IMG/VR virus record: IMGVR_UViG_2897358383_000002 | Reading direction: 5' to 3' (one strand) | DNA from: a virus | Taxonomy: Duplodnaviria; Heunggongvirae; Uroviricota; Caudoviricetes | Length of the DNA stretch: 64,000 nt | Part shown: positions 1 to 7,199 of the stretch, one piece after another | How positions within the stretch are numbered: position 1 is the stretch's first letter | Layout: every line of letters starts with the position of its first letter | Made by a program: the position numbers and the translations under genes | The notes under the pieces: generated by a model | What the model saw: the letters and a program-made list of their open reading frames with translations, nothing else | The model's database searches: none | What the model was told of the DNA's origin: nothing

Positions 1-197
1 GTGGAGTCCAGGGTGTCAAACAGGGATGCAAATTCAGCATCCAGCGCCGCTTTTTTGTAGGCTTCGAAAGTAGCCTTGCTGACAATTACTGCTGGCTCAC
101 GGCCTCTGCGGGTGATTTCAACCTCTTCCCCGGCCTCAACATTGTTGAGCACTTCAGAAAGGTTGCCGCGCGCGGTACGGAAGTTAATGGATTGCAT
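1..197 (-). CDS. phd: Phd/YefM-family antitoxin, N-terminal part (gene runs off the left edge; doc expected beyond it)
   Basis: Reverse-strand translation from ATG at 197 gives MQSINFRTARGNLSEVLNNVEAGEEVEITRRGREPAVIVSKATFEAYKKAALDAEFASLFDTLDS, which matches P1 Phd as I remember it. GAGG precedes the ATG. Confidence 0.85.
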   Translation of the reverse strand, partial: MQSINFRTARGNLSEVLNNVEAGEEVEITRRGREPAVIVSKATFEAYKKAALDAEFASLFDTLDS

Positions 198-204
198 AAA
201 TACC

Positions 205-240
205 TCGTGTACTCGTTATGTGTACACAATTATAAACTTC
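205..240 (-). promoter_or_regulatory. Putative phd-doc promoter and operator
   Basis: Palindromes CGTGTAC and TGTGTACACA sit just upstream of phd, followed on the reverse strand by a TATAAT-like hexamer (231-236). Phd is known to bind GTGTAC-type palindromes. Confidence 0.45.
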
Positions 241-373
241 ACAGGCATAAAGCACCAGCACTTTGCGGCTTAACAAACCTCTAGGCAGGTCATTCGTAGC
301 CTAATGTCCGAACTGCTAAAGCATCCAAGTTGCTGTAGAATCACATCCAATTACTTAAACCTGAAATAAGTGG

Positions 374-1936
374 ATGAAAATGACAAGTATTCAACAACGT
401 GCAGAGCTTCATCGCCAGATCTGGCAAATTGCTAACGATGTCAGGGGTTCAGTCGATGGATGGGATTTTAAGCAGTACGTTTTGGGCGCGCTTTTTTACC
501 GTTTTATCAGCGAAAATTTTTCCAGCTATATTGAAGCCGGTGATGACAGTATCTGTTATGCGAAACTGGATGACAGCGTAATTACTGATGACATTAAAGA
601 CGATGCCATCAAAACCAAAGGTTACTTCATCTACCCCAGTCAGCTTTTCTGCAACGTAGCGGCGAAAGCAAATACCAATGACAGACTGAATGCGGATTTA
701 AACAGCATCTTCGTTGCTATCGAAAGTTCTGCTTACGGTTATCCTTCAGAAGCTGACATCAAAGGTTTGTTTGCTGATTTCGATACAACCAGTAACCGCC
801 TGGGGAATACCGTTAAGGATAAAAATGCCCGCCTGGCTGCGGTTCTGAAAGGGGTTGAAGGGTTAAAACTTGGTGACTTCCACGAACATCAGATTGACCT
901 GTTCGGTGACGCCTATGAGTTCCTGATTTCTAACTATGCGGCGAATGCCGGTAAGTCAGGCGGCGAGTTCTTTACACCGCAGCACGTCTCTAAGCTGATT
1001 GCACAACTGGCTATGCACGGGCAGACCCACGTTAACAAAATCTACGACCCGGCAGCAGGCTCCGGTTCGCTGTTGTTGCAGGCTAAAAAACAGTTTGATG
1101 ACCATATCATCGAAGAAGGTTTTTTTGGTCAGGAAATCAACCATACGACCTATAACCTGGCGCGTATGAACATGTTTTTGCACAACATCAACTACGACAA
1201 GTTTGATATCAAGCTGGGTAATACACTGACTGAGCCGCACTTCAGAGATGAAAAACCGTTTGATGCCATCGTTTCTAACCCGCCGTATTCGGTGAAATGG
1301 ATTGGCAGCGATGACCCGACGCTGATTAACGATGAACGTTTTGCCCCGGCTGGCGTTCTGGCCCCCAAATCCAAAGCTGACTTTGCGTTTGTATTACATG
1401 CGCTGAACTATCTTTCGGCCAAAGGTCGCGCTGCGATTGTCTGCTTCCCAGGCATTTTTTACCGTGGCGGCGCGGAGCAGAAAATCCGTCAGTATCTGGT
1501 CGATAATAACTATGTCGAAACCGTGATTTCACTGGCTCCGAACCTGTTCTTTGGCACCACCATTGCCGTAAACATTCTGGTTCTGTCTAAACATAAAACG
1601 GATACCAAAGTTCAGTTTATTGACGCCAGCGAACTGTTCAAAAAAGAGACTAACAACAACATCCTGACCGATGCCCATATCGAAAAAATTATGCAGGTAT
1701 TTGCCAGCAAGGAAGATGTTGCTCATCTGGCGAAATCTGTTGCGTTTGAGACTGTTGTCGCGAATGACTATAACCTGTCGGTGAGCAGCTATGTGGAAGC
1801 GAAAGATACTCGCGAAATTATCGATATCGCTGAGCTGAATGCTGAGCTGAAAACCACGGTCAGCAAAATCGACCAGTTGCGCAAAGATATTGATGCGATT
1901 GTGGCTGAAATTGAAGGCTGCGAGGTGCAGAAATGA
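374..1936 (+). CDS. hsdM: Type I restriction-modification N6-adenine DNA methyltransferase subunit (HsdM), Type IC/EcoR124-like
   Basis: 520-aa ORF with the NPPY catalytic motif (VSNPPYS) and AdoMet-binding region ([10 protein letters not shown]). Stop overlaps the hsdS start (ATGA). Confidence 0.95.
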
Positions 1937-3189
1937 GCGAGATGAGTTATCTGGAAAAATTGCTGGATGGGGTTGAGGTTGAGTGGAAGACTCTCGGAGA
2001 AGTCGCAAAATATGTACGTGGTTTAATTTATAGCAAATCGAGTGAAAGCGCGGATGGTCAAGGCTATAAAGTGCTTCGCGCTAACAATATCACGCTGTCT
2101 AATAATTGTTTAAATTTAAATGATGTCAAGGTGGTGAGGTTCGACACCAAAGTAAAGAGTTCGCAAAAGCTATATAAGAACGACATTCTAATTAGCGCAG
2201 CAAGTGGTAGCCGTGAACATGTCGGTAAAGTTGCTTACATAGAATCTGATATTGACTACTACTTTGGCGGATTTATGGGGGTCGTCAGATGCGATGAAAA
2301 ATTAAATCCACGTTATTTATTTCACGTTTTAACAAGTGATATTTTCCAAAAATATCTTGATGAAATGTTGAATAGCTCAACCATTAACAACTTGAACTCA
2401 GCCGTAATGGGAAGATTCAAAATCCCATTACCCTGCCCAGATACCCCGGAAAAATCCCTTGCCATCCAGTCTGAAATCGTTCGGATTCTGGATAAATTTA
2501 CTGCACTTACCGCTGAGCTTACCGCTGAGCTTACCGCTGAGCTTACCATGCGTAAAAAACAGTACAACTACTATCGCGACCAGTTGTTGAGTTTTAAAGA
2601 GGGTGAGGTTGAGTGGAAGGCATTGGATGATGTTTTTGACATTGTTGCAGGCGGCGATGCACCAAAAGATGCCTTATCCGAATTTGAGACCGAGGAATTC
2701 AGCATCCCCGTTTTATCAAACGGTATAGGTAATAAATCACTATATGGATGGACTGACAGAGCCAAGATTGAGAAACCGAGTCTCACCATATCTGCAAGAG
2801 GTACTATTGGATGGACTAGCTATAGAAGTAGACCATTCTTTCCGATAGTGCGACTGCTGGTCTTGACGCCAAAAATTAAATTAAACTTGAAGTACGCTTA
2901 TTACTTCATGAAAACCATTGAGAATAATTACAAAATCCCTGAGGCAGGCATACCCCAGCTAACTAAACCGATGCTCAAAGACATTAAAATCCCCTTCCCA
3001 TGCCCCGGTAATCCGGAGGAATCTTATAACGAACAAGCCAGAATCGCAGCGACTCTCGACAAATTTGACGTCTTAACAAATTCGATTACCGAAGGTCTTC
3101 CGCGTGAAATCGAGTTGCGCCAGAAACAATACGAGTACTATCGTGATTTACTGTTCAGTTTCCCAAAACCCAAAACTGTCAGTAATTAA
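1933..3189 (+). CDS. hsdS: Type I restriction-modification specificity subunit (HsdS), Type IC
   Basis: 418 aa with two target-recognition domains separated by the conserved central region [21 protein letters not shown]...[16 protein letters not shown] and the distal conserved region [19 protein letters not shown]. Confidence 0.9.
2506..2547 (+). repeat. 12-bp tandem repeat x3 encoding (TAEL)3 in the hsdS central spacer
   Basis: cttaccgctgag repeated three times in frame. The TAEL copy number sets the spacer length of the recognition sequence in EcoR124I (2 copies) versus EcoR124II (3 copies). Confidence 0.9.
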
Positions 3190-3310
3190 TTGACCATTGC
3201 TACAGACCGGCTCACCTTAACATCCGGTCAGTATATAGACTATTTTTTACGCGCCGGAAGTCACTCTTAACGCCCTTCCGGCTCTTGCCAGGCGGCACAA
3301 AGGATGCGCT

Positions 3311-6427: not shown

Positions 6428-6506
6428 CCCAATTCGTATTTTTCTTGCGGGTTCTTAATTAAACCCGCAAGAGACCGTGGGGTTCCAAATGGCTAATATA
6501 CTCCCC

Positions 6507-6592
6507 TTACCCATGAGCGACGATGCCGCCAAAAGTGATAGAGAACAGCCAGAAATAGATCGCGGTCATAATGATTTTGAATGCCGTGTTCA
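6507..6592 (-). CDS. Small hydrophobic peptide, 28 aa (MNTAFKIIMTAIYFWLFSITFGGIVAHG)
   Basis: ATG at 6592 with GGAG 8 nt upstream. Sits between two hairpins and downstream of a late-promoter-like box. Not in the ORF track because it is under 60 aa. Confidence 0.35.
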
Positions 6593-6621
6593 TATCTTCA
6601 GCTCCTGTGATTGATTGGATA

Positions 6622-6652
6622 CATGCCGCGCCCTTGCGGCATGTTTTTATTT
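6622..6652 (+). terminator. Rho-independent terminator candidate downstream of hsdR
   Basis: Stem CATGCCGC/GCGGCATG with a 6-nt loop, followed by TTTTTATTTT on the plus strand. Confidence 0.5.
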
Positions 6653-6679
6653 TCACTTTCTCTGTTTTAAAAATCAATA

Positions 6680-6693
6680 TTTATTAGAGCAAT
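6680..6693 (-). promoter_or_regulatory. Late-promoter-like box (reverse-strand sense TTGCTCTAATAAAT, then ATTGATTTTTAAAAC)
   Basis: One of at least six copies of the same 14-mer in the window, each followed by an AT-rich -10-like element. Points leftward at the 28-aa peptide gene. Confidence 0.4.
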
Positions 6694-7199
6694 TATTGTT
6701 GATGGAGAAGCGCGTTTTCATACTCCCTGACCATTAACGTAAGCACGCCGTGCCTCCTGAAAACACGCGCCACTTCAATCTTATCTTCCAGCGCGAACGC
6801 GATTTTACTTAGACCAATTTTCTTAAGGAGATCAATCTTTGCTTGGCCGTCATTTCTGTCATCGGTGGCAGGACGCATAGATAGCAAAGGCTCAGCCCCG
6901 TTTGTTACGTACTTCCGCAGCCAGGCTCGTGTTTTATCCCTTGCGATCTCACAGCGCCCGGTTACAAACCAGACCGTGTAAACGTTAAATAACTGGCGCA
7001 CAATATCAATAACTGGAGTTATGGGAGTATCAGTGTCACAGGCGAGATTAAACTCGTTCCAGTCCTTTGTTAATGCACCTTTACCTGGTGGCGGAAGCAA
7101 ATGCAGTCTGTCTTCAGTTGCCTCTGATATTGTTCCATCAATATCAACTATGACGATATACGGACGTTCCTGGTGTGCGTGTTTATTGAAAATACTCAA
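6693..7199 (-). CDS. HAD-superfamily phosphatase-like protein
   Basis: 168 aa. DxDGT motif (VDIDGT) near the N-terminus, then TGR and K/D motifs in HAD order. TTG start with strong SD GAGGAGGG. Confidence 0.6.
   Translation of the reverse strand: MSIFNKHAHQERPYIVIVDIDGTISEATEDRLHLLPPPGKGALTKDWNEFNLACDTDTPITPVIDIVRQLFNVYTVWFVTGRCEIARDKTRAWLRKYVTNGAEPLLSMRPATDDRNDGQAKIDLLKKIGLSKIAFALEDKIEVARVFRRHGVLTLMVREYENALLHQQ

Follow-up and report, generated by a model that had tools for sequence, protein, structure and literature searches.

We analysed a 64,000-nt stretch of DNA from a tailed phage (IMG/VR record IMGVR_UViG_2897358383_000002; hereafter the window), with a focus on the restriction-modification (R-M) operon hsdMSR at its left end and on the phage P1 DNA that borders this operon on both sides. 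Three genes lie on the plus strand: hsdM (374-1936), which encodes a Type IC N6-adenine methyltransferase subunit of 520 amino acids; hsdS (1933-3189), which encodes a specificity subunit of 418 amino acids; and hsdR (3311-6427), which encodes the translocase and endonuclease subunit of 1038 amino acids. The stop of hsdM and the start of hsdS share 4 nt, and a 121-bp intergenic region (3190-3310, plus strand) separates hsdS from hsdR. This gene order, overlap and gap fit a layout of two transcription units, and a single consensus-like promoter site was found in the gap (3217-3246), with none upstream of hsdM. To the left lies phd on the minus strand (1-197); on the right, pap is the P1 backbone gene nearest to the operon, also on the minus strand (6693-7199; 97% to P1 Pap, Pfam HAD_PNKP). 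An earlier note on this DNA had placed the operon beside the phd-doc addiction module in divergent orientation. The divergence from phd holds, but only Phd residues 1-65 of 73 are present (tblastn, 100% to P1 Phd, 197..3); the 3' end of the gene is cut by the window edge, and its last 8 codons and doc fall outside.

Domain searches agreed with this gene assignment. The hsdM product matched the Pfam families N6_Mtase (1.3e-121) and HsdM_N, the hsdS product matched Methylase_S twice, and the hsdR product matched HSDR_N, SWI2_SNF2/ResIII, a T1R_D3-like domain and EcoR124_C (the last at 1.2e-71). The PADLOC models for a Type I methyltransferase, specificity subunit and restriction endonuclease concurred with Pfam for the three genes. 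Furthermore, the window HsdR aligned with HsdR of EcoR124I (PDB 2w00, 2w00_A) at residues 1-1038 on 1-1038 with 2255 bits, single-residue mutants of EcoR124I HsdR scored 1-3 bits below the 2w00 score, and HsdM aligned with the EcoR124 M subunit (7bst_D) at residues 1-520 on 1-520 with 1156 bits. We infer from these scores that HsdR and HsdM differ from the prototype at a few residues at most. All three genes are full length and free of internal stops, and every catalytic signature is kept, namely the nuclease residues D151/E165/K167, the Walker A motif GSGKT at 310 and motif II DECH at 408 in HsdR, and motif I DPAAGSG at residue 225 and motif IV NPPY at residue 302 in HsdM. No prrC gene, as found in EcoprrI-type loci, is present in the 121-bp hsdS-hsdR gap, which holds no open reading frame (ORF). 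Judged from its sequence, the operon is a complete Type IC system, as the earlier note had proposed, and belongs to the EcoR124 family; the Type IC assignment is correct because HsdR and HsdM match over their full lengths and retain their catalytic signatures. Type I families are formally defined by subunit complementation among enzymes (PMC12707154); as HsdM and HsdR are nearly identical to those of the prototype, the system would be expected to complement other Type IC enzymes.

In contrast to HsdM and HsdR, HsdS differs from its EcoR124 counterpart in part: its three constant regions (N-terminal, central and C-terminal) correspond to those of EcoR124 HsdS, but both target recognition domains (TRDs) differ. 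Within the central constant region, a 12-bp unit, CTTACCGCTGAG, is perfectly repeated in tandem 3.5 times (2506-2547, plus strand) and encodes (TAEL)x3, the element that sets spacer length. In EcoR124II, EcoDXXI and EcoprrI, a linker longer by four residues goes with an N7 spacer, and EcoR124I has an N6 spacer (PMC12707154 Table 1); by analogy, the three TAEL repeats of the window HsdS predict an N7 spacer. A protein database search with HsdS (E <= 1e-20) returned 7,994 proteins. One of them (P0001, 414 amino acids) has both TRDs of the window HsdS but two TAEL repeats, another (P0014) has TRD1 alone in common with it, and two more (P0029 and P0056) have TRD2 alone in common. In plasmid NZ_CP021203.1, the match to the window spans 12 bp less. 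These allele relations are those of classical Type IC TRD shuffling and repeat slippage. Two half-sites were considered and rejected. An AAC half-site for TRD1 would rest on a weak likeness to EcoKI TRD1 (59.5 bits, E 2.5e-15), which is too distant for transfer. An RTGC half-site for TRD2, the domain shared with P0056, was not assigned because the EcoprrI-derived name of P0056 is homology-derived only and because P0056 has two TAEL repeats, against the longer linker reported for EcoprrI.

To define what the operon replaces, the window was aligned with P1 and P7, as the earlier note had suggested, and this alignment yielded boundaries at 273/274 and 6502/6503. On the left, P1 homology (98.9% identity to the phd/Pphd region over window 1-273) stops at the left junction (270-274), where ...GCGGCTTAA is followed by CAAACC. 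Read on the other strand, the TTA at this junction is the stop codon of humD, which has been kept. On the right, ...ATATACT is followed by CCCCTTACCC; from 6503 onward the sequence is again homologous to P1 and P7, with 98.3% identity to P1 pap-pmgS-pmgR over window 6503-9000. In P1, the right junction point lies 6 nt ahead of the pmgT start codon. Rightward of the cassette follow the P1 backbone genes pap, pmgS, pmgR, pmgQ and ppp. We considered 6503 as a recombination breakpoint and rejected it: P1 and P7 are homologous to each other beyond this position, which marks the divergence of the window only. Between the two junctions, 6,229 bp of hsd DNA (274-6502) have taken the place of 3,487 bp of P1 DNA that comprise humD, lxr, hot, upfO, upfN, upfM, pmgV, pmgU and pmgT. 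As the earlier note had observed for hot-lxr-humD, these genes are missing: P1 HumD, Lxr, Hot, UpfM/N/O and PmgT/U/V had no tblastn match at E <= 0.01 in the whole 64 kb. By sequence comparison, the content of the pap-phd site is a replacement and not the insertion that had been proposed, because P1 DNA is missing at the site.

No trace of transposition was found at these boundaries. Neither the ORFs nor the Pfam matches in or beside 274-6502 include a transposase or integrase, and the gaps between phd and hsdM (176 bp) and between hsdR and pap (265 bp), beyond which P1 backbone genes begin, are too small to hold one; on this point the earlier note was right. When 40 nt on each side of both junctions were searched for a target-site duplication or microhomology, no direct repeat of at least 6 nt was detected; the earlier note had proposed to look for short direct repeats there. 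The longest k-mer common to the two junction neighbourhoods is 5 nt (CTAAT), which is at chance level and argues that there is no target-site duplication.

The arrangement proved to be on record. In the P1 annotation of Lobocka et al. (2004), as deposited in NC_005856, a misc_feature with 98 pct identity to an E. coli conjugative plasmid upstream of the EcoDXXI hsd locus covers doc-phd and ends no more than 1 nt from the left junction. Two others, one with 96 pct identity downstream of the EcoDXXI hsd locus and one with 98 pct identity to plasmid R124/3 downstream of hsdR, begin exactly at the right junction. The window likewise has phd homology upstream of hsdM, and P1 homology that covers the C1 operator Op88 and the region upstream of pmgT lies downstream of hsdR. 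Tyndall and colleagues reportedly described such P1-flanked Type IC hsd loci in 1997. Their study (Tyndall et al., 1997, Mol Microbiol 23:729) is cited as evidence of R-M mobility (PMC12707154). The P1 block from pmgT to humD is the published 'variable region 8' of P1-like elements (PMC9603915), and in a CRISPR interference screen its genes were non-essential for P1, except that upfM was not in the screen and is non-essential according to earlier work (PMC10695390). An hsd operon between phd and pap of a P1-like element is therefore already known, was first described in 1997 and is ordinary.

We next counted the contents of this interval in PLSDB by coverage thresholds, with redundant and clonal records included. 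At least 80% of the pap-pmgS backbone segment is present in 613 records, the junction segment from the hsdR 3' end through pap to pmgS in 250, at least 80% of window 1-7300 in 227, and at least 80% of the hsd cassette, whatever its surroundings, in 635. At least 80% of P1's own pmgT-humD block is found in one piece in only 4 records, and parts of this block are found in 723. The hsdR-pap junction is also present in 213 of 5,426 complete E. coli genomes, which puts the share of genomes with a P1-like element bearing a Type IC system at approximately 4%. Phage vB_EcoM-673R5 (ON470615.2) matches window 1-9000 with 99.9% identity and 100% coverage, phage phi456 (OR339795.1) matches 90% of window 1-9000 at 96.8% with identical junctions, and NZ_CP033882.1, CP119117.1 and NZ_CP142927.1 are among the plasmid records that are 100% identical over window 1-7300. 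P7 has a different, longer content again at its pap-phd site. The earlier note took the operon for a non-ancestral insertion and named, as the finding that would overturn this, the same operon at the same position in canonical P1-like genomes. Such copies were found, with the same junctions, in 2 phages, approximately 250 PLSDB plasmids and 213 E. coli genomes. Laboratory P1 has an unusual layout at this interval, and the absence of hot-lxr-humD from the window is not an anomaly because laboratory P1 is an atypical reference here. The proposal of a cargo-exchange hotspot is borne out both by the published variable region and by the several alternative contents counted at the site. A further copy of the locus (NZ_JBSWBF010000003.1), otherwise 100% identical, is broken by an IS3-family insertion.

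Three contexts of the cassette were distinguished in a spread sample of E. coli genome hits and in the plasmid matches. The first consists of P1-like elements, in which the match covers window 1-7300. The second consists of IncF-type conjugative plasmids, in which the match covers 1-6586, that is phd, hsd and precisely the 84 bp of residual P1 DNA recorded in R124/3; in the IncF plasmid pU17 the order is IS5...pdcA-doc-phd-hsdM-hsdS-hsdR-84 bp P1 DNA-IS1 (IS, insertion sequence). The IncF copies descend from a P1-like element that already held hsd at this site, because they retain P1 flanks. The third consists of chromosomal Type IC loci that are approximately 95% identical and match only from 357/377 to 6417/6427, with no P1 flanks at megablast sensitivity; some of them carry an AAA ATPase (PrrC-like) gene. 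In addition, a Type IC hsd operon of approximately 82% identity occurs in the 111-kb Klebsiella phage vB_KpnS_p4727 (PQ492289.1) and in many Klebsiella plasmids, where the match is confined to the coding region (window 377-6419). On sequence similarity, a second group of phages and plasmids thus carries the Type IC family without P1 flanks.

From these data, we consider it very probable that window 274-6502 is a classical plasmid-borne cassette of the EcoR124 family within a P1-like phage-plasmid, one of several alternative alleles of the dispensable pap-phd interval, which would act and spread as follows. By its near-identity to EcoR124I, the HsdM2HsdS complex would methylate a bipartite target whose half-sites are set by the two TRDs and whose spacer is set by the TAEL repeats, and the addition of HsdR (R2M2S) would turn it into a translocating, ATP-driven endonuclease that cleaves incoming DNA lacking the modification. 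Specificity would change whenever a single 12-bp repeat is gained or lost. EcoR124-type enzymes settle safely in naive hosts through assembly control (PMC12707154), which would suit an element that reaches new cells in phage form. The presence of hsd at the site probably goes back to one old replacement event, because all copies examined have the same two junctions. Homologous recombination in the phd-doc and pap-pmgS flanks would then spread the cassette among P1-like elements, and IS-bounded pdcA-doc-phd-hsd fragments would bring it into IncF conjugative plasmids. The phd-doc module acts in trans and stabilises the whole replicon, so it offers no special gain to neighbouring DNA, and the suggestion in the earlier note that it would stabilise whatever lands beside it is not supported, since the effect is not positional. 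The linkage to phd-doc matters only for block transfer of pdcA-doc-phd-hsd, as in pU17.

Several points weigh against this interpretation. The PLSDB counts include redundant and clonal records, as stated above, and the chromosomal Type IC copies without P1 flanks at megablast sensitivity bear on the ultimate source of the cassette. The N7 spacer of this HsdS allele is an analogy, and promoter-like sites are no more frequent than in shuffled sequence, the promoters being either consensus-like or transferred from P1. As a discovery the locus means little; it is a textbook case of a defence system in a recombination-prone, dispensable slot of a phage-plasmid. Its wider relevance is that P1-like elements pass a toxin-antitoxin and R-M block to conjugative plasmids, and that specificity which varies by TRD shuffling and 12-bp repeat slippage bears on phage therapy and on barriers to plasmid transfer.

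The alternative that survives best is that hsd is ancestral at the pap-phd site of the P1-like lineage and that the pmgT...humD block of P1 came later, which we regard as unlikely but deserving of weight. The approximately 250 plasmids with hsd at the site outnumber the 4 with the full P1-type block, and the P1 flanks of the IncF copies place hsd in a P1-like element before those transfers. However, the 723 plasmids that hold parts of the P1-type block and the 5' end of pmgT common to P7 and P1 indicate that pmgT-type content is also widespread and mosaic, and frequency in clinically biased databases is not polarity. Furthermore, in D6 the homology is confined to window 1-234, the side of phd.

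That the cassette is a decaying or silent remnant or an assembly chimera appears highly improbable. The near-identical ON470615.2 annotates hsdM and hsdR in pieces, and a suspicious inverted duplication lies at the far end of the window; however, the three ORFs are full length with all catalytic motifs present, several independent records (among them NZ_CP033882.1, CP119117.1 and NZ_CP142927.1) are 100% identical over 1-7300, and the split genes of ON470615.2 are most simply explained by sequencing indels. Finally, a recent arrival of hsd in this element alone, brought in by a transposon, an integrase or some other mobile element, comes close to the freshly landed cargo pictured in the earlier note; it is effectively refuted and is the least probable reading of all, even though the cassette has sharp bounds and a G+C content (0.38-0.49) slightly below that of the backbone on its right. 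No transposase or integrase lies in or next to the cassette, the junctions lack a direct repeat of at least 6 nt, the loss of P1 DNA at the site indicates replacement, and identical junction nucleotides recur across hundreds of records as well as in the sequences of pDXX1 and R124/3 known in the 1990s.

With the cassette read as a classical EcoR124-family allele of the interval, its closest named relatives are EcoR124I and EcoR124II (plasmids R124 and R124/3), the Type IC prototype. HsdR (1038 amino acids) and HsdM (520 amino acids) are near-identical to theirs over the full length, the order hsdM-hsdS-gap-hsdR is common to both, HsdS agrees in its constant regions and in the TAEL repeat, which is present three times as in EcoR124II, and P1-derived DNA lies directly 3' of hsdR in each. 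The difference lies in the two TRDs, and because both differ, the target in the window is not GAA(N6/7)RTCG. In addition, the R124/3 type keeps only 84 bp of downstream P1 DNA, whereas the window has the full P1 backbone on both sides. EcoDXXI (pDXX1) has the same two P1 junctions as the window according to the P1 annotation, with doc-phd up to the humD stop upstream and P1 DNA from 6 nt before the pmgT start downstream, and it too has the longer central region (PMC12707154 Table 1); its host, however, is a conjugative plasmid and not a P1-like phage-plasmid. Plasmid p50579417_1 (NZ_CP033882.1) and phage vB_EcoM-673R5 (ON470615.2) are P1-like elements with the HsdS allele of the window, and differ in that indels split the annotated hsdM and hsdR of the latter. 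The match of phi456 is split into 3 pieces that together cover 90% of 1-9000, and this points to another hsdS allele. EcoprrI, from the chromosomal prr locus with the PrrC anticodon nuclease, is also Type IC, and P0056, which bears an EcoprrI-derived name, shares TRD2 with the window HsdS; it differs by its prrC, in place of which the window has a 121-bp hsdS-hsdR gap. EcoP1I (res-mod), the Type III R-M system of P1, is likewise an R-M system in a variable region of a P1-type phage-plasmid (region 1; PMC9603915), but it is of another enzyme type and occupies another locus, adjoining cre/ref/mat. In NZ_CP033882.1 (regions 20147-21274, 4716-6071 and 7959-10794), a RelA/SpoT-domain gene occupies the res-mod position by mat/ref/cre, and an anti-phage dGTPase and an IS200/TnpB pair are also present. 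Going by its gene content, the defence set of this plasmid is unlike that of P1 at several loci.

We also examined the regulatory sequences around the cassette. The Pphd promoter (229-257, minus strand) was transferred from the P1 annotation (P1 locus L001 1729-1757, 98.9% alignment). Next to it lies an hsd-specific leader (274-373, plus strand), which has no P1 match and which the chromosomal copies lack upstream of approximately 357. The hsdM promoter presumably lies in this leader; a scan for consensus promoters found none in 274-373. Just 3' of hsdR, a stable hairpin (6443-6472; -22 kcal/mol, z -4.6 on the plus strand and z -5.2 on the minus strand) is followed by no U-tract on either strand. 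Beyond the right junction, the P1 backbone DNA contains an unannotated hydrophobic ORF of 28 amino acids, MNTAFKIIMTAIYFWLFSITFGGIVAHG (6507-6593, minus strand), with an AGGAG ribosome-binding site, located between PpmgT and the junction. The 60 nt to the right of the junction, which cover the 3' part of this ORF, are near-identical in P1 and P7, and the P1 annotation has no coding sequence there. For transcripts in the hsdR sense, a hairpin resembling an intrinsic terminator and followed by UUUUUAUUUU (6621-6644, plus strand) lies within the P1-derived DNA. The promoters P1pmgT and P2pmgT and the C1 operator Op88 (6648-6693, minus strand) were placed by transfer from the P1 annotation, and Op88, ATTGCTCTAATAAATAT (6677-6693), has 1 mismatch to the consensus. 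An Rfam search of 1-7400 for structured RNAs gave no match at E <= 0.1.

In this arrangement, which has no pmgT for them to drive, PpmgT and Op88 are aimed through the 28-amino-acid ORF at the hsdR 3' end, with no canonical terminator between, and an hsdR antisense transcript released by loss of C1 repression is conceivable. Speculatively, a lysogen would express HsdR, and after induction the loss of C1 would allow convergent transcription to damp it. We think it very improbable that such antisense transcription couples restriction to the prophage state, and EcoR124 functions in F plasmids that lack the PpmgT promoter. A second and smaller possibility, covered by the same low estimate, is that the combination of TRD1, TRD2 and three repeats gives HsdS an uncharacterised specificity.

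The rest of the window is largely P1-like. From 6503 to 54263 the window runs colinear with P1 (84482-37153; 85-99% identity), interrupted by four more non-matching stretches of 2,261, 1,190, 204 and 129 bp. As expected for a Punavirus backbone, P1 structural, replication, partition and immunity genes are colinear around the cassette. At 28166-30426, 2.3 kb replace the P1 repA/incA replicon and encode a Rep3-type initiator (28335-29255) and a T5orf172-domain protein (29548-30357); this replicon is probably the known alternative p0111-type of P1-like plasmids (PMC9603915). At 38329-39518, 1.2 kb replace the P1 rlfA-rlfB-pmgF region and include an ORF of 210 amino acids (38422-39054) that had no Pfam or PADLOC match. 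At the far end, 51453-54425 and 61039-64000 form a large near-perfect inverted duplication of tail genes (bplA/16/R/S-5') that flanks the tail-fibre (C-segment) region. Its arms are 100% complementary apart from small interrupting indels, and the second copy has broken ORFs; it looks like an assembly artefact (fold-back or mixed orientation) around the invertible segment, or else like a real duplication. Window 54240-55830 (within ORF 53488-56499) contains repeats with a 300-bp period in a tail-fibre S-like gene, which has 12 Phage_fiber_2 repeats, many more than the matching P1 segment.

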